Source of the DNA: a virus
Lineage: Duplodnaviria > Caudoviricetes
DNA length: 64,000 nt
IMG/VR virus record: IMGVR_UViG_3300012232_000010
Span: 1-64,000 of that record
Strand: one strand, 5' to 3'
The notes below the pieces were generated by a model that was not told the origin of the DNA, ran no database searches, and saw nothing but the letters and a program-made list of their open reading frames with translations. Numbering within the stretch: the stretch's first letter is position 1; each line of letters opens with the position of its first letter. The position numbers were made by a program, and so were the translations under genes. Positions 3,491-49,324 of the stretch are shown piece after piece.

Positions 3491-5249
3491 TTAATTTTCT
3501 TATATCCTGAATAATTATTGATCCATTTTTCTTGTATCCTTGCAGGAAGCAAATCATCCCATCCTTACAGTATTTACTTAATTTTTCATAAGAATCTGGA
3601 AAGACAACCGCATGATCTATGCTGTAGGTAGAGTCTGATATTGTCAAAAAGCACATTGCCGATCCGGGAGTTTTACCCTTTTTGGTTTTAGTATTCTTGA
3701 CATTATCTATTACAGCACAAACTGAAAAATGTTCGCCATTCAGAGCCTTCATAAGATCAAGGCAAGTATGACTAGCTATTTCGTCATCATCAACATCATC
3801 AACCGGGGAGCAAGACAATGAGATGCCTAGATAGTATTTCTCTGCCGTTGCTTTACCCAAATTTGTATCTATTGATTCCTCTTCTAGTTCTTTTATCTTT
3901 TCTTCTACCACCTGTATTCTTTTGATATTAGACAGCGGCTTATTCTCTTTGTTCTCTTCGTAATTATACTTCTTCAGTATATTGATTATATCAAACTTTG
4001 TTTTGTCAACAAAGTCTTCGTCTGTCAAACCTGTAAATTCTTTTGTAAATTCTATTACTTCTCTCTTATTCATAGAACTTAGTGATCTAGTTAACATTTG
4101 ATTCTTCTTACTTATCATGTCTTCTAGAACTTGCTTGACTGTTTTTTCATCAGTCAATTTATAGAAAAACCACTTCCTTTCTCTTTCTGTTAAACCCTTT
4201 ACATCTTTGGTCTTACCATCTTTATCTCTGATTTGTGTACCAAATATACATTCTAGCTCTTTGATCATTTGAGACCGTTGTTTGCCATAACAATCGCAAG
4301 CCCCGGCCTTAATCAAGGCAACCCCTATATTCTTATGGAGCATAGGAATAGACCCAAGAAACCCTTGCCAAGTAGCAACCGATTTGGGACCATTTTCTGT
4401 TATTTTGGCAATAGCTGATTCACCAACACCCTTAATATTGGATAGACCAAATCTCATACTTTCATCAACGATCTTGAATCTAACATTACATTCTCTTATG
4501 TCTGGCTGCAAAACGTCAATACCAAACAATCTGGCATCTTGGACCAATCTATAGATTTCGTCCATAGTATCGGATTTGTAATTCGAGTATGTTAGATAGC
4601 TTGTGAAGAATTCTAGAGGAAAATGGGATTTCATCCAAGCTGTGCTATAACTTAACATAGCATAGGAAATAGCATGGGATTTATTAAATGAATATCTTTG
4701 GCTTTTCTCTATCCAATCGAATATTTGTTCAGCTACTTCTAGTTTAACATTTCTACTTGCCGCCCCATCCATAAACTTTTGCTTAAGAGAAGCCATCAAT
4801 TCCGGAATCTTTTTACCCATAGCTTTTCTTAGATTATCAGCTTCGATCATACTAAATCCGGCTATCTCTTTGGCTATAGCTAATACTTGTTCCTGATAAA
4901 TCATAGAATTATAAGTTGGGGCTAGAATATCTTTGAGCGCTGGATGGAGATACGATGGTTGCTTACGTCCAAATTTTATGTCGATGTATTCGTCGGACTG
5001 ACCAGACTCTAATGCTCCGGGCCTCACAAGTGCTGTTAATGCGGCTAGTTCTTCTATATTGACCGGCTTAACCTTCTTAGCCCAATCCATCCCCAATCGG
5101 CTTTCAAGCTGGAAAACACCAGTAGTAAAACCGGAAGATATGAGCGAAAAGGTGGCAGGACAATTTACAGGTATTTTGTTTACGTCGAAACTACCCGGTT
5201 CAACTACGCAATCACAATTAGAAAATTTGATCTTATCTTTTGATTGCAA
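3486..5249 (-). CDS. dnaE: DNA polymerase III alpha subunit, C-terminal half (fingers, HhH, OB)
   Basis: TTGVFQLES, RPG, YQEQ, ADNLRKAMGKK, YSFNKSHA, GLSNIKGVGE (HhH), C-terminal OB fold; TTG start after GGGGGA RBS. Confidence 0.93.
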   Translation of the reverse strand: MQSKDKIKFSNCDCVVEPGSFDVNKIPVNCPATFSLISSGFTTGVFQLESRLGMDWAKKVKPVNIEELAALTALVRPGALESGQSDEYIDIKFGRKQPSYLHPALKDILAPTYNSMIYQEQVLAIAKEIAGFSMIEADNLRKAMGKKIPELMASLKQKFMDGAASRNVKLEVAEQIFDWIEKSQRYSFNKSHAISYAMLSYSTAWMKSHFPLEFFTSYLTYSNYKSDTMDEIYRLVQDARLFGIDVLQPDIRECNVRFKIVDESMRFGLSNIKGVGESAIAKITENGPKSVATWQGFLGSIPMLHKNIGVALIKAGACDCYGKQRSQMIKELECIFGTQIRDKDGKTKDVKGLTERERKWFFYKLTDEKTVKQVLEDMISKKNQMLTRSLSSMNKREVIEFTKEFTGLTDEDFVDKTKFDIINILKKYNYEENKENKPLSNIKRIQVVEEKIKELEEESIDTNLGKATAEKYYLGISLSCSPVDDVDDDEIASHTCLDLMKALNGEHFSVCAVIDNVKNTKTKKGKTPGSAMCFLTISDSTYSIDHAVVFPDSYEKLSKYCKDGMICFLQGYKKNGSIIIQDIRKLI

Positions 5250-42479: not shown

Positions 42480-42865
42480 AAAATAATCTTCCTTTTCTTT
42501 TTGACTACAGGATCATATTTCTTAATCTCTTTTGGTTTTTCAAGAATAAACTTTTTAGACTTTAACTCAGGATAATAACTTTCAGTATAAACATCATCGA
42601 ACATCCAAGCTCCAGACTTATCAAATTCTCTCATATAATCTACACCATCAAGAGATTCTGTGAATTTTACTTGCAGCCCAAATATATTTATCTCTTCAAT
42701 ATTTTGAAGTATTATAGGTTTATCATTATAGAATGGGCTATTGAATACCATCTCCAAGAAATCTAGCTTATTGTTTTTTGATACAAATATAACATTGGGA
42801 TACCTTGATCTATACGCTCTAAAATCTTGTATGGCCTTATGAACGTCTTGCATAGATTTAAACAT
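42476..42865 (-). CDS. Hypothetical protein with C-terminal RKIIL tail
   Basis: Coupled ORF. Confidence 0.5.
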   Translation of the reverse strand: MFKSMQDVHKAIQDFRAYRSRYPNVIFVSKNNKLDFLEMVFNSPFYNDKPIILQNIEEINIFGLQVKFTESLDGVDYMREFDKSGAWMFDDVYTESYYPELKSKKFILEKPKEIKKYDPVVKKKRKIIL

Positions 42866-44276
42866 CTAATACCTCATATTTGATACTTGTATTACTAAAT
42901 TCTCCCGGAGAGATTATCGCAAGCTGATCTAATACTAGCTTCCTTAAGCCTATAGCTATATTCACAACCTCTACCAATTCTTGCTTGGTCAAGACCTTAT
43001 TCGGATAAATGATTTTGATAAGAGCGCTACTTAATTTTGTTACGGCCTGTTGATTCCTGAAACCAATATCTGCAAACTTAATTCTGGACTTAACAACATC
43101 AGTATAATCTATATCTCTTAATCTATGAAATATCTCCCCAATATAGTCGGCCATAAATCCGTAATCACTAGACAGGCTAGACATGGTAATTCTTGGGAGT
43201 TTCCAGCCGGGGATGTATCCGTGGATTCTGTCTAGAAAAGCCCTATCGTTCCTTATCTTTGCTGGTAACGGGATAAACAAGTGGTGATAGTAACCCTTGA
43301 CTTCACCCTTTTCTCTATCGCTATCTATATTACCTATGAAAACCGTAGAGCAAGTAGCCGTTAGCTCCGTCTTATCTCTTGAGAACTTACCAGAGTTAAG
43401 ATAATCCTTCATCATATTGATGAGTTCTTCATTATCGAACTTAGTTCCAGATATTTCATCAAATACTATAAAATCCTTTTTACAGATTGCTCCGACACTT
43501 CTTCTTAACTTGTTGTAGAATAGACTAGCCACGCTGACGCTAGAACCAGATAAGACTAGACCATACTGACTTATATTTCTATAAAGATGCGTCTTAGCGG
43601 TTTCAGTGCCGCCCAATTCTACCATATTGACATTACATTCTACGAATGGTATAAGTCTACATATATACAACATCTTCTGTTCTTTTGAAAGATGTTCCGG
43701 ATTAAATCCTACACTATTTATGATAATATCAATCCACTCGTTGGTTGAAAACTCTCTTCTCTTCTCTATAAACGAATTATGATTTATATTTGTTACCTGA
43801 AAAGGTATAAAGTCTGTGATAATGAATGGATAATTCTTCTTTTTAATTAGAAAGTTAGGATCATAAGCAACGGACACGCTACCGAAACACCCTGTTGTCA
43901 GTAAAGTATCTCCATATTTATCCAATATTGGTTTAGCGATTCTTACATTATTGTCTTCCAATACATTGATAGATGCGAAATACTCATTCTTATTCTGGTC
44001 AAACCTGCATTGAACATTTCCTATAAATGAATATCTGCCGAGTTCTCTAATCCTACTCTTGACCAACTCTTTCTTATCAGAATCTATGAAGTTTTCTTCT
44101 ATGATCTTATTTATCTTTAAGATTCCAGAATCAATATTCGATCCATCAACTAATTGAGACACAAGATAATCACACACGAATGATGGAAGCTTCCTAAAAT
44201 TGTTAGAAGAATTAGATATAGACTTGTTTATAACCAAACCATTCTGGTTGAACACGTTTTTAAGTTTTACATTCAT
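42858..44276 (-). CDS. BrxL-like MCM-related AAA+ ATPase lacking the Lon protease domain
   Basis: LPSFVCDYL, R..FS..EWID....S.G..P, RLIPFVE.N.N.VELG....AKT, FDEI, K.Y..SGKFSR, GNI, AFLDRIHGYIPGW, YG...DY..E. Confidence 0.8.
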   Translation of the reverse strand: MNVKLKNVFNQNGLVINKSISNSSNNFRKLPSFVCDYLVSQLVDGSNIDSGILKINKIIEENFIDSDKKELVKSRIRELGRYSFIGNVQCRFDQNKNEYFASINVLEDNNVRIAKPILDKYGDTLLTTGCFGSVSVAYDPNFLIKKKNYPFIITDFIPFQVTNINHNSFIEKRREFSTNEWIDIIINSVGFNPEHLSKEQKMLYICRLIPFVECNVNMVELGGTETAKTHLYRNISQYGLVLSGSSVSVASLFYNKLRRSVGAICKKDFIVFDEISGTKFDNEELINMMKDYLNSGKFSRDKTELTATCSTVFIGNIDSDREKGEVKGYYHHLFIPLPAKIRNDRAFLDRIHGYIPGWKLPRITMSSLSSDYGFMADYIGEIFHRLRDIDYTDVVKSRIKFADIGFRNQQAVTKLSSALIKIIYPNKVLTKQELVEVVNIAIGLRKLVLDQLAIISPGEFSNTSIKYEVLDV

Positions 44277-44899: not shown

Positions 44900-45117
44900 T
44901 TTGCATCCTTTACAAGATACTCAAACATTTGAATCATATGTTCTTTTGCTTCTTTCTTAGAAAAGTTATTTGGATATTCATCTCCACCAGTCAATTTCTC
45001 TAACAAGTCTTTTATATCATAATGAATAGACCAAAGTATATCTCTTTCGTAGGGGGTATTGCGTTGCTCGTCTATATCCTTTAGAAGCTTTTTAATATGA
45101 GCATTCTTTTTATTCAT
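44896..45117 (-). CDS. Hypothetical protein
   Basis: Coupled ORF. Confidence 0.45.
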   Translation of the reverse strand: MNKKNAHIKKLLKDIDEQRNTPYERDILWSIHYDIKDLLEKLTGGDEYPNNFSKKEAKEHMIQMFEYLVKDAK

Positions 45118-45209
45118 TAATCATCCCCACAAGTATCAAGTATAACCCATAGACTCACAGAAAAGACCATAACTATCCAACACCAAGTTATTAGTTCTTG
45201 ATTTATCAT
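45117..45209 (-). CDS. 30-aa single-TM peptide (not in ORF track)
   Basis: MINQELITWCWIVMVFSVSLWVILDTCGDD; GGAG RBS; TAATG overlap with the next gene. Confidence 0.55.
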   Translation of the reverse strand: MINQELITWCWIVMVFSVSLWVILDTCGDD

Positions 45210-45374
45210 TTCAATCTCCAACCAAACTTATTTTCGGTCTTGCAACGTGCATAGCACGTATTTGATTTGAATTATAAATGTCGGCGCGCAATCCGCCCAT
45301 TATACCTATCAAATCTAATATCCTATTAGATTTAGTCTTTAAATCTCTTTACTATACAGAGATAGACTATAATC

Positions 45375-45684
45375 TTGTACGGACTTGCCAGCGCTATTCC
45401 GGGTTTTCTCGGACCAGAGTATTGGTCGGTCAAATACTTCTGGATTTTTCGTCGGGGACGATTTGGCACACCCAATCCTATCACCGCCCAATGCAGCCAT
45501 CAATCCCGAAGGATATACTCCACATTGGTTTGTCAGCGGCTCAACTGGCATTGGGACCATCAGAGTTTGAATTCGGCCCTTTGCTGTTGAAAATTTATTG
45601 GGATTCGTTCGACTTGAATAGCTCAAGTGTATCCTTTCCTTGTCGTGCATTTTTGTCCTAGTAAATGCACAAACTTCCGTACAA
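45375..45684 (-). ncRNA. Candidate large structured non-coding RNA (core; may extend over 45245-45856)
   Basis: Elevated GC, 9-bp closing stem TTGTACGGA/TCCGTACAA, nested stems, cUUCGg tetraloop on the minus strand, no convincing coding frame. Confidence 0.55.
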
Positions 45685-45860
45685 TATGTATCTTATACGC
45701 CAACCCGCTTAAACGGGTTCTCAAAAATCTGTAAATTTGCGCCATTGAACGATCCGGAATTTCCGGACAGTTGGGACGTTCCTGCTCTAAAATCCAACCT
45801 GCGCAATCTAAAGCGTTTTTAACGTCTTCGTTTATATGCTTAACTTTTATAAGCATTACT

Positions 45861-46244
45861 TTAATTATCTTCTCTCCATATTCTTTCAAAATCTTCTTCG
45901 TTAATATTGAATCGAGAAGAAAATTTCTTAGCTACAGGCTTAACTCTTTGTCTTATTTGTTTATACCCGGATGGATCGTTTTTGTAATCTTCTTTCAATA
46001 TAGCCCATCCGAACCACATGTCTTTGCTGACATATTGTTCTGCTATATAGTTCAGAGTCCATTCCCACCACTTTTTACCATTTAGTAAAATCTCGTAATA
46101 TGAATCTGGATTTTCGGGAATAATGCCTTTACTCTCTTTCAAGAAAAACTGTTGCAATCCTTCTTCCGTTCTGGTGAACGGTTGGATAGTAGAGCATCTT
46201 TCGAATCTTTCTATTTCTACTTTAAATTTGCGACTTATTCTCAT
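45861..46244 (-). CDS. Hypothetical protein
   Basis: ORF directly upstream of the structured region. Confidence 0.55.
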   Translation of the reverse strand: MRISRKFKVEIERFERCSTIQPFTRTEEGLQQFFLKESKGIIPENPDSYYEILLNGKKWWEWTLNYIAEQYVSKDMWFGWAILKEDYKNDPSGYKQIRQRVKPVAKKFSSRFNINEEDFERIWREDN

Positions 46245-46245
46245 A

Positions 46246-46434
46246 TTATTTTTCTAATAGAGACAGAAGATGTTTAGCAAAAATAACTTCTCCGCATTCT
46301 ACTCCACCATGAAAGGCGTCATCCATATTCCCGCCGAATCTATCGTACACTATTTCATCTTCTTGCATTTCTCTTCCATAATTTTTTTCAATATATGTTT
46401 CTAGATATTTTACAATTTCTGTTATATCTTTCAT
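46246..46434 (-). CDS. Hypothetical protein
   Basis: GGNMDDAF.GG...GE motif; coupled ORF. Confidence 0.5.
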   Translation of the reverse strand: MKDITEIVKYLETYIEKNYGREMQEDEIVYDRFGGNMDDAFHGGVECGEVIFAKHLLSLLEK

Positions 46435-46901
46435 GATTCTACCATCCTATCTATAGCTTTGATATAATAATCAGTTAAGTCTTGAACTTCTTTATCATTT
46501 TCTTTTGTTCTATATTTTCTTCTTGTGTTTCTGATAGCGACCCTAGCTTCTTCGGCCAATCTATCTTTATGGGCTTTAATTTTCTTTAAGACTTCGCCAG
46601 ACGCAATAGGAATATTGACCATGATTGTATTTTTAGAGAATTTATAAGCTTCAAATCCGTGTTCCTTTAACACATCTTCCACCGAACCTAATATCTGCGG
46701 GTCGAATGGTGTCACTGACACTTGCCTATCTTTCTTTGCAAAAGAACACAGATGTTGCAATGGGGTTGGTTGGGCGTGATATCCTATCCTTAGATTTTGC
46801 ATAATACTATCATCTATATCTGGACCTATTCCGATTATTTGTCTTTTAAACAAATCGAAAGTTTTCAACATAGATTCATTAGCTTCTTTCATTTCATTCA
46901 T
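46431..46901 (-). CDS. frr: Ribosome recycling factor (divergent)
   Basis: Y...PTPL, V.PFDP, I.V.IP, AEEARVAIRNTRR, VQDLTDYYIKAID. Confidence 0.85.
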   Translation of the reverse strand: MNEMKEANESMLKTFDLFKRQIIGIGPDIDDSIMQNLRIGYHAQPTPLQHLCSFAKKDRQVSVTPFDPQILGSVEDVLKEHGFEAYKFSKNTIMVNIPIASGEVLKKIKAHKDRLAEEARVAIRNTRRKYRTKENDKEVQDLTDYYIKAIDRMVES

Positions 46902-47119
46902 TAGTGTAACCAACTTAAAAATAGATTAAACCATTCATTAGAAATTTTGGGTTCACGATAAAGTTCTATACCCTTCATATTCTTACAAAATGCTTTTACC
47001 ATTTCTATTGCATGTTCTTCAAATTCATCTACATCATAGATTGATGAACACACCATCGGATCATTTTCATTTATAGGTAGCCAAGGCAATTCTTTATGCT
47101 CATCTTTACGATATCTCAT
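46901..47119 (-). CDS. Hypothetical protein
   Basis: Coupled ORF. Confidence 0.45.
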   Translation of the reverse strand: MRYRKDEHKELPWLPINENDPMVCSSIYDVDEFEEHAIEMVKAFCKNMKGIELYREPKISNEWFNLFLSWLH

Positions 47120-47428: not shown

Positions 47429-49324
47429 TCAAATATTTTCATTTTTAATATCCTTTTTGAACATTGAGAACTCATAATGCTTCGAGTTTTGCAAGATTAG
47501 GCTTTTAATAAATTCATGCTTTAACGGTCTACGATCCAACATTGTGAAACACGCTGCTAACTTATCTCCCTGATATTTTTGCTTTGCCATTAGTGCAAAA
47601 TCTTTTCTAGACAAATGATGCTCATTTTCTTCTACAAAGTTTCTAATATGATCGGTTATAGAATTCGCAATTTTTATACCATCATACATAGAACAAACCG
47701 CTGGCATTATCGTCGTCCAAGTTTCGAAATCATAATTCGTTTCGAAGTTGTGTTGGAACACGCAAAAATCTGGTCTATCCCACGCAAGCCATAAATCTAT
47801 TAACGATTCTGACTTAAGATTCGATTTCAGCGCATGTAGGATAAAATAGTTATCTGACTTACACTTAACTAAGTCTTGATCGTTGTTCATCCTTATAACA
47901 TACCCTTCAATCTCTTTTTCATTCTTAAGTTTTGCTATTAAATTTATAACATCGGCTTTATTCTTTAGATTGAAGTGCTTGACCAAAGAGATAGATGTTT
48001 CTTCAGATATCTTCTTAAGACCATGAATATCTATTAGATCAAAGTCCGTATCGAACCACTTCTTGTCTTTTCCGTGAAACACAGCGCCAACTAGATATAT
48101 CTCTGGCGAATCGTATTTTATCACTATCTGATTTCTTGGAGAGACCCATTCAAATAGTAAAGACATAAATGAATAGTACGACGGGTCCGCTAGTTTAGGA
48201 TACTTTTCAAGGAATCCTTGTATTTCATCCTTATTATCCAAACCAACTTCTAAAGAACCTCTCGTTCTAAACTTAACTTCTCCATTATGGACGTACCGTA
48301 TAAGAAGCGAGCCATCTATCTTCAGAGTAGCTAGAAGCCCTTTACCCTTCTCTATCTGGTCCAGCAAATCTTGCTCTGTTATTCTAGAATGGTCACAACC
48401 CTCTCCCAAATTGAAGAACTTTTTAAAGCCACACGAAATGACTTTATCATCAGCGTCTAAATGCAGTGACCTTAGCCATAATGAATCTTCAGATTTCCAA
48501 GCGGAATTGGAAACAGCAAATCCGGGCGTTATTAATCTTTCCCCATTGTTTCCTTCAGATATTTTGAATTCTTCTGGTATCATACAATTCCTTTTGAAAC
48601 CTTCCGTTTCGACTATTTCATAGTTTCCGTTTTCGATAACCATAGCTCTTAGAACTCCACCACCCGCACAACCACCATCTAGAGCAAAGTTCCAAGGAAC
48701 GGGATTGACGTTGAATGAACCTATATGGCCAGATAGAATATAGTACCCGCCAAGTAGAGTATCATACCAAATTCCCTTAGTTTCATCGAAATAGTTCTTT
48801 GGGTCAATTCCACGAATATAGATGCATGTTTCTTTAGTTTGGGAATCTATTGGATATCTAGTATCAATTCCTGCATGAACCACGTAGCAAGGCAAACCGT
48901 TTAAATCTGGTAGACGAATAATGTGTGGTAGAGCATCAATATAAAGTGCAAACCGCCATCTATCCATCGCCAAGTTTGGCGACTTAATAGTTATCTCGTC
49001 TATAGTTTTTTGTAGCGCTTTGCCAATAGTAACTTTATTACCAGTACACCATCGTCTAAACTTGTCATCATGGTTCCCGCAAACCGTGTATATATGATGT
49101 TCTTCATGAGGATTGTCTGGTGTAAAAGTATTCAAAACTTCGTAACACTGATCGCCTCTATCGACTAAATCTCCACACCCAACTATAACATCTGTTTGCT
49201 TATTGTAATTGCATTTGATTAGTAGATTTATGAATTGATCGTAACATCCGTGAATATCCCCAATAACTATAAATCGTTTATTCTTCAAGTGTGTTAGGTC
49301 TAAGATTTTAGCGATTTTTCTCAT
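47429..49324 (-). CDS. Fusion of metallophosphoesterase and T4 Rnl1-like RNA ligase
   Basis: GDIHG, GDLVDRG, GNHD, VHAG; then KFFNLGE, KIDGSL, FEWVSPRNQIV, EGYV, KCKS. Confidence 0.85.
   Translation of the reverse strand: MRKIAKILDLTHLKNKRFIVIGDIHGCYDQFINLLIKCNYNKQTDVIVGCGDLVDRGDQCYEVLNTFTPDNPHEEHHIYTVCGNHDDKFRRWCTGNKVTIGKALQKTIDEITIKSPNLAMDRWRFALYIDALPHIIRLPDLNGLPCYVVHAGIDTRYPIDSQTKETCIYIRGIDPKNYFDETKGIWYDTLLGGYYILSGHIGSFNVNPVPWNFALDGGCAGGGVLRAMVIENGNYEIVETEGFKRNCMIPEEFKISEGNNGERLITPGFAVSNSAWKSEDSLWLRSLHLDADDKVISCGFKKFFNLGEGCDHSRITEQDLLDQIEKGKGLLATLKIDGSLLIRYVHNGEVKFRTRGSLEVGLDNKDEIQGFLEKYPKLADPSYYSFMSLLFEWVSPRNQIVIKYDSPEIYLVGAVFHGKDKKWFDTDFDLIDIHGLKKISEETSISLVKHFNLKNKADVINLIAKLKNEKEIEGYVIRMNNDQDLVKCKSDNYFILHALKSNLKSESLIDLWLAWDRPDFCVFQHNFETNYDFETWTTIMPAVCSMYDGIKIANSITDHIRNFVEENEHHLSRKDFALMAKQKYQGDKLAACFTMLDRRPLKHEFIKSLILQNSKHYEFSMFKKDIKNENI

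Follow-up and report, generated by a model that had tools for sequence, protein, structure and literature searches.

Comparison of the phage DNA described here with its relatives indicates that positions 45268–45722, read on the minus strand, are probably the gene of a new family of stand-alone accessory phage RNA that is about 455 nt long and compactly folded. Three sequence variants of the element were found, and all three keep the same multi-helix architecture: a core closed by helix H1, which holds three hairpins, a two-arm sub-domain and three more hairpins, followed by a domain of two hairpins at the 3' side. The family is new in fold and in sequence and is rare; large structured phage RNAs as a kind have precedents.

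Genomic context of the element

The stretch that was analysed, referred to below as the window, comprises the first 64,000 nt of a 97.7-kb IMG/VR virus record that is estimated to be 58% complete and has a GC content of 37%. The long gene-like ORFs around the element are all on the minus strand (Table 1), several small ORFs are also found in this minus-strand neighbourhood, and ORFs between 45860 and 45215 gave no matches to either Pfam or PHROGs. A preliminary description of this DNA, made from the sequence of the window, had drawn attention to a GC-rich gap without a convincing gene. The sequence and coordinates given there proved correct, with a GC content of 0.42–0.48 over 45300–45800 versus 0.28–0.36 in the flanks. 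The element is single-copy in the record. A GC-rich spot at 70.3–70.6 kb of the record was rejected as a lead; it is located inside a 479-codon ORF.

Table 1. Features of the RNA locus in window coordinates, ordered in the direction of the minus strand.
Feature	Position	Strand	Remarks
RNA-ligase/phosphoesterase fusion (Rnl)	47429-49324	minus	Pfam/PHROG annotation
Divergent ribosome recycling factor (RRF)	46431-46913	minus	Pfam/PHROG annotation
o127, 127-residue ORF	45861-46244	minus	
RNA cassette, ~455 nt	45268-45722	minus	Breakpoints from L002 versus L075 and from flank alignments; holds all helices except flank hairpin Hk
5' hairpin	45702-45719	minus	Missing in L002
Core domain, ~310 nt	45375-45684	minus	Closed by 9-bp helix H1
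H1, UUGUACGGA with UCCGUACAA	45684-45676 with 45383-45375	minus	Independently predicted in window and L002
Ha, UUGUGCAUUU/AAAUGCACGA	45643-45672	minus	One G-C to A-U double change
Phantom ORF, start MHDKE, 103 codons (88-99 in homologs)	45650 to 45339	minus	Open, without protein-level selection
Hb, invariant loop GCUAU	45612-45628	minus	
Sub-domain closed by He (CCCAAU/AUUGGG)	45471-45602	minus	Encloses Hc and Hd
Inserted hairpin, cUUCGg cap (45503-45514)	45489-45527	minus	In two variants; 39 nt cleanly deleted in L002
Hf	45449-45461	minus	
Hg	45414-45443	minus	U-A to C-G double change
Hh	45398-45413	minus	
3' domain, Hi and Hj	45312-45369	minus	Outside H1
Hi, variable hairpin	45333-45369	minus	Outer stem C-G to A-U; inner stem rebuilt per variant
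Hj, 9-11 bp, GGA loop	45312-45332	minus	Two adjacent double changes
Conserved 3' tail, GAUAGGUAUAAUGGGCGGAUUGCGCGCC	45268-45311	minus	From alignments; repeats core motifs GAUAGG and UGGGCGG
Flank hairpin Hk, ACGUGC-N3/4-GCACGU	45245-45259	minus	Kept in all four relatives
BrxL-like ATPase	42858-44276	minus	Pfam/PHROG annotation

Variants and their distribution

Homologs were sought using the neighbouring proteins, exact DNA blocks and the overlapping ORFs termed phantom ORFs here. Across all the collections searched, only three distinct sequence variants turned up. The window type is represented by four further, identical copies (L058, L059, L060 and L063). Over the core, the L057 type, which also occurs in L062 and L064, is 90.5% identical to the window, and the L002 type, found in a 129-kb IMG/VR contig and a 172.5-kb JGI contig, is roughly 78% identical and carries several indels. 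Scans of IMG/VR produced L002 as the sole carrier contig, the remaining matches being at chance level, and the scans with neighbouring proteins also gave L003 and L075, two relatives that both lack the RNA. A scan of JGI metagenomes brought up nothing but copies of the window type and of the L057 type. No match to the element was obtained in GenBank phages by blastn, bacterial and archaeal genome representatives gave chance matches and no carrier, and searches of protein space with the phantom ORFs of both strands revealed no further variants.

The runs bearing this DNA were from freshwater sediment, sediment and soil, while short contigs of the L057 type came from two wastewater runs. None of the runs listed with the element was of RNA; two labelled RNA-Seq, which are probably DNA, contained only short L057-type contigs. 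The phages that carry the cassette form a small clade of uncultivated and probably large phages from freshwater sediment, soil and wastewater.

Limits of the cassette and alternative alleles

The limits of the element were set by comparing the window with the related phage sequences L002, L003, L057 and L075. The preliminary description had placed the element at 45245–45856; its existence was borne out, and the comparison with relatives narrowed it to about 45268–45722. These limits follow from L075, which shares both flanks of L002 (5' TTGCGCAGGTTGAAC...AATGGCGCAAATTTA and 3' TTCAAATACGTGCTGATGCACGTTAGCATGAC) around other cargo. Between these same flanks the L002 cassette measures 422 nt and the stretch in its place in L075 941 nt. 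The replacement in L075 (L075:4029-4989) includes a 5' hairpin resembling that of the cassette itself, a G-rich repeat tract at approximately 4100–4215 with repeated TTAAGGAA and runs of GGGGGG, and a short remnant, TATGCATGACAGAGAAT. It also contains an ORF of 242 residues whose C-terminal part matches the DUF559 PD-(D/E)xK endonuclease domain (Pfam E = 5e-10). Apparently a free-standing endonuclease gene of the homing type has overwritten most of the RNA gene here and left this remnant.

L003 has the genes in the same order, Rnl-o127-o64-o67-BrxL, with amino-acid identities to the window of 61% for the RNA ligase and 76% for o127. Only 25 nt separate o127 from o64 in this relative and the element is therefore absent there. 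Judged from these alleles, the locus behaves as a cassette, that is, a swappable site holding the RNA, an endonuclease gene or nothing.

The hairpin at 45245–45259, counted as part of the element in the preliminary description, is real and conserved but belongs to the flank. It lies outside the cassette since it is also conserved in a relative without the RNA. This hairpin, Hk, is terminator-like in the plus-strand reading only, and its motif has one occurrence in the 97.7 kb. On the other side, the region 5' of 45722 is likewise shared flank and is retained where the cassette is replaced; the hairpin at 45753–45767 that had been listed as a further part of the element is found in the window only. 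A scan recognised neither a promoter nor an intrinsic terminator for the cassette on the minus strand, and the 5' flank motif TTGCGCAGG showed no promoter-like recurrence across the genome.

The preliminary description had also pointed to the proximity of the RRF and RNA-repair genes. A link with these is not supported, as L002 carries the RNA but no RRF and L003 retains the RNA ligase although the RNA is missing. Only the window type and the L057 type have RRF, and the RNA is thus not coupled to this gene.

Helix map of the proposed RNA

When each segment of the alignment was folded separately in the three variants, the same hairpin was obtained per segment. Approximately 14 helices are rebuilt in all three variants, and folds of the whole cassette recover most of the segment-wise hairpins. 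The majority of the pairings named in the preliminary description are present and conserved in the homologs, namely the 9-bp stem 45375–83/45676–84, the CCCAAT/ATTGGG helix (45471–76/45597–602), the CCAGA/TCTGG (45414–43) and ACTTGA/TCAAGT (45612–28) hairpins, the GTGCATTT/AAATGCAC hairpin at 45645–70, TCGTC/GACGA at 45449–61 and the hairpins at 45311–33 and 45333–69. The proposed pairing of CCCAATGC (45487–94) with GCATTGGG (45548–55) had to be abandoned, as it is lost in the divergent homolog and clashes with two helices that are kept. Two others stand in part: the cUUCGg hairpin is present on the minus strand as proposed but absent from the most divergent variant, and the hairpin at 45702–19 is present but missing in one variant.

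In helix H1, one G-C pair is replaced on both sides by A-U in L002. H1 competes with an invariant local hairpin, CGUAUAA/UUGUACG, which could represent an intermediate of folding or act as a switch. In Ha, the loop contains a conserved AGGA and the 3' strand contains the AUG of the phantom ORF. The sub-domain helix He, formed by 45597–602 with 45471–76, is remade as UCCUG/CAGGA in L002. It encloses Hc (UCAAC-A-GCA/UGC-CA-GUUGA), which bears a variable distal hairpin of unrelated sequence in each variant, and Hd (GCCGCU/GGCGGU), which shows a G·U to G-C change and bears the optional inserted hairpin. One A-U to U-A double change was observed in the inserted hairpin between the window and L057.

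Two pairings between loops and distant strands were noted. In the first, PK1, the GCUAU loop of Hb may form a pseudoknot with AUAGC at 45393–45397, a candidate in which all positions are invariant and covariation is therefore lacking. The second, PK2, is a weakly supported candidate pseudoknot between the Hg loop CCGAC (45425–29) and GUUGG (45700–04). In L002 it reads AGUGG/CCGCU, amounting to two double changes, and a null obtained by shuffling columns contains 0.095 such helices per alignment.

Variation between the variants is limited to distal stems and loops, and the junction strands are near-invariant. A variable periphery combined with near-invariant junction strands is typical of RNAs with a tertiary fold. 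The distal parts of Hc and Hi cannot be aligned, since their sequence changes from one variant to the next.

Covariation, folding energy and strand

Covariation was evaluated on a MAFFT alignment of the three variants (A4) using 97 curated pairs. Three variants amount to two independent contrasts, and it is from only these two sequence contrasts that support for the RNA comes. Of the curated pairs on A4, 96.8% are paired. Compensatory, double-sided changes were anticipated for a structured RNA and were observed at 8 pairs, located in H1, Ha, He, the inserted hairpin, Hg, Hi and Hj (two). Shuffles gave 3.1±1.3 such pairs and none of 500 reached 8; sliding the partners by 1–3 columns gave 0–1. 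In addition, two distal hairpins (Hc and Hi) have been rebuilt from unrelated sequence and one hairpin is cleanly deleted in L002.

The minus strand of the element folded more stably than dinucleotide shuffles, again as anticipated. In the window the 455-nt cassette reached z = -3.8 and a 501-nt stretch z = -4.5; L057 gave z = -4.5. The L002 cassette folds weakly better than shuffles, with z = -1.9 to -2.3 in the sense direction and -3.0 in antisense, and z-scores by themselves do not settle the strand. The strand was assigned from the curated helices. With 14 G·U or U·G cells versus 2 A·C cells, these show the RNA to be on the strand of the genes, in agreement with the preliminary description. 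The minimum free energy is 9–11 kcal/mol lower on the minus strand, and the UUCG loop reads correctly on that strand only.

Comparison with known RNA families and systems

As had been expected from the sequence of the window, the element was not assigned to any Rfam family. At gathering score no match to Rfam 15 was obtained in the window, L002, L057 or L075, and over 45000–46100 at E ≤ 10 there were only four matches of chance level (12–16 bits). The families covered include GOLLD, ROOL, OLE, HEARO, RNase P, tmRNA, 6S, T-box, group I and II introns and small ribozymes. ARAGORN detected no tRNA or tmRNA in the window. Short resemblances to CR-I/CR-V of RNase P, the T-box sequence, the R/S elements of group I introns, domain V of group II introns and box C were all dropped because cmscan gave them no support and the partner pairings they require are absent.

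GOLLD and ROOL, for which cryo-EM structures have been described (PMC12286853), are likewise phage or prophage RNAs of several hundred nucleotides with multiple domains. They share with the present candidate highly conserved unpaired nucleotides, pseudoknots (candidate ones here) and a role that is not cis-regulatory. In contrast to them, the present RNA is shorter, has three variants only and matches neither in sequence or structure by cmscan; its nearest tRNA gene is approximately 31 kb away, whereas GOLLD and ROOL have a tRNA neighbourhood.

The group I introns of phages resemble the element in their similar size, in forming a GC-richer structured island with a long-range closing helix and in the homing-type endonuclease gene found at the same site in L075. 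Unlike them the element is intergenic, the 25 nt of L003 contain no exon remnants and the flanks in L075 surround unrelated cargo. RF00028 gave no match, and equivalents of P3-P8, P4-P6 and P7 with its G-binding site are not obvious in the helix map. The mRNAs of hok-type type I toxins also combine long-range pairing between 5' and 3' ends with a start codon within a stem and a hydrophobic ORF nearby, but here the hydrophobic ORF is outside the structure and absent in L057, the structured part is much larger and no antisense RNA is evident. The cassettes with PeSL motifs in T4-type hyperplastic regions (PMC2839356, PMC4122927) have in common with this locus alternative cargos between conserved flanks and a stem-loop on one flank; the difference is that the flank hairpin is not repeated in this genome and the cargo is an RNA gene.

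Alternative explanations

Four other explanations of the element were weighed. It is unlikely that it encodes a small protein or serves as a structured mRNA with a dual function; the MHDKE frame would then be translated from AGGA-N5/6-AUG partly hidden in Ha. The main argument for a protein is that this frame is the sole one open in all three variants (103, 99 and 88 codons). Furthermore, the AUG and an AGGA 5–6 nt upstream of it are conserved, the indels of L002 sum to multiples of three and leave the N- and C-terminal parts in frame, and gene callers called the frame as a gene. Substitutions, however, are distributed over its three codon positions as 23/16/25 versus L002 and 9/7/12 versus L057, and the overlapping ORFs are without the codon-level conservation that the preliminary description had named as a ground for refutation. 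They are flat over the whole element (29/34/28), whereas the neighbouring genes show an excess at third positions (Rnl 152/92/320, o127 12/11/41 and BrxL 111/66/242). At 90% nucleotide identity, the window and L057 differ by 5 synonymous and 14 non-synonymous codon changes in this frame. Indels at ORF positions 51, 98, 173 and 220 shift approximately 94 nt of conserved sequence out of frame in L002, and because of these the reading frame across the invariant blocks UUUCAACAGCA and CGACGAAAAAUCCA is not the same in L002 as in the window. Nucleotide identity of the element surpasses that of the genuine neighbouring genes (90.5% vs 67–76%; 78% vs 70–83%) and conservation runs far beyond both ends of the frame. 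No Pfam or PHROG family was matched, and no related proteins beyond the ORFs of the three variants themselves emerged from an hmmsearch of 1.84 billion protein representatives, with two weak non-specific matches discounted. An antisense frame of 127 codons is also open in the window, which is ascribed to chance. Taken together, the flat codon positions, the synonymous and non-synonymous changes, the frame shifts, the extent of conservation and the lack of relatives lead to the conclusion that the phantom ORF is not under selection at the protein level.

It was judged improbable that the element works in cis as part of the polycistronic mRNA, for instance as a long leader, as an element for processing or stability or as a riboswitch-like regulator of a neighbouring gene. 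Such a role would fit an element that is on the same strand as all its neighbours, has no recognised promoter or terminator of its own and contains a strand, UUGUACG, with two mutually exclusive conserved partners that could constitute a switch. Against it, relatives keep the upstream o127 and the downstream o64, o67 and BrxL-like genes without the element, the cassette therefore being dispensable and not needed in cis by these neighbours. The small membrane-peptide ORF downstream is absent in L057, and the known leaders of this kind are far smaller than an element of 455 nt with near-invariant junctions. The chances of a DNA-level or single-stranded DNA element, be it an origin of replication, a signal for priming or packaging or a site of recombination, are very slight. 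The element is GC-richer than its surroundings, rich in hairpins and non-coding, it sits at a site of cassette exchange, and strand asymmetry alone is no proof of RNA because single-stranded DNA tolerates G·T wobbles. An origin had indeed been put forward in the preliminary description as the alternative, but along all 97.7 kb of the contig the cumulative GC skew stays monotonic, without a turn at 45 kb, the genes on both sides are co-oriented, a motif search showed no iterons or repeats, and the element is single-copy. An essential origin or packaging site is made unlikely by the one relative that is altogether without the element, and nested long-range pairing together with a cUUCGg loop is characteristic of RNA. 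Equally slight are the chances that a mobile RNA element, for example a self-splicing intron or an element with a ribozyme, is decaying here and has lost its function. Patchy distribution and the endonuclease gene in L075 would agree with this origin, and group I introns do form GC-richer structured islands in AT-rich phage genomes. The element is nevertheless more conserved than the neighbouring genes, which is the opposite of decay, and neither Rfam intron family matches even at E ≤ 10. No gene is interrupted, given that a spacer of 25 nt is all that lies between the flanking genes in L003 and that the flanks in L075 are intergenic; nor does the single-copy element have terminal repeats on the boundaries as read here.

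Proposed role of the RNA and its relevance

For the stand-alone RNA favoured here, we infer that it would arise as transcription reads through the block of co-oriented genes and would fold into a globular structure through H1 and up to two loop-strand pseudoknots, PK1 and PK2. It would then act in trans during infection by means of its invariant junction nucleotides, conceivably through binding of a protein or RNA partner, through self-assembly or possibly through catalysis. Self-assembly would parallel the GOLLD and ROOL RNAs (PMC12286853).

A more specific reading is put forward tentatively and is less secure than the existence of the RNA itself. It may be that the RNA represents a previously undescribed class of phage RNA that is large and globular, acts in trans and is unrelated to GOLLD, ROOL or any Rfam family, working as a ribozyme, as the core of an RNP or by self-assembly, and carried as a swappable cassette at a site that is also open to a homing-type endonuclease gene, by which it has been partly overwritten in one lineage.

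To our knowledge, large bacterial and phage RNAs with complex folds are rare and almost every class that has been studied in depth showed unexpected biochemistry, as seen in ribozymes, nanocages and guide RNAs. The candidate shares their hallmarks in having an invariant core, a variable periphery, likely pseudoknots and conservation above that of the surrounding genes. The lineage of uncultivated phages that hosts it also carries translation and RNA-repair genes. The narrow distribution limits general impact until further members or a function are found. At ~455 nt, with a core of ~310 nt, the RNA is small enough for direct transcription and probing, and the natural RNA, endonuclease and empty alleles offer a ready comparison.

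Other observations at the locus

The sequences flanking Hk (TTCAAATACGTGCT.ATGCACGTTAGCA.GAC; window 45230–45275, minus strand) are near-invariant in all four relatives whatever the cargo upstream. In three of the four they can be read as TTCAAA-N17-TAGCAT, which is promoter-like with a palindromic spacer.

A short ORF with the pattern M.QKA...QNR.NK.MAQ.Y.F... is shared upstream of the cassette (window 45700–45800 on the minus strand, L002:7031-7132 and L075:3962-4072). Its C-terminus varies with the cargo because the ORF runs into the cassette. It may encode a small basic protein, act as a leader or simply be conserved flank. A 77-codon ORF called at 45623–45856 of the window overlaps it. 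Small basic ORFs with a zinc-ribbon-like C.KH...C.TC motif were also observed upstream of the cassette in L002 (6347-6565), L075 (3235-3576) and L057 (1836-2111); a counterpart was not found in the window.

Directly downstream of the cassette, a small hydrophobic ORF of the membrane-peptide kind, MINQELITWCWIVMVFSVSLWVILDTCGDD, occupies 45117–45209 on the minus strand and is preceded by a GGAG ribosome-binding site. Other hydrophobic peptides are encoded in the same place in L002 and L075, and none in L057.

RRF is both accessory and fast-evolving, with 56% identity between the window and L057 (L057:1268-1732) and absence from the locus in L002, L003 and L075. The RNA ligase adjoining it is 61–80% identical across all these relatives. 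The rest of the record contains three tRNA genes, all on the minus strand: Arg-TCT at 76839–76910, Ile-TAT at 87969–88043 and Glu-TTC at 93885–93960.
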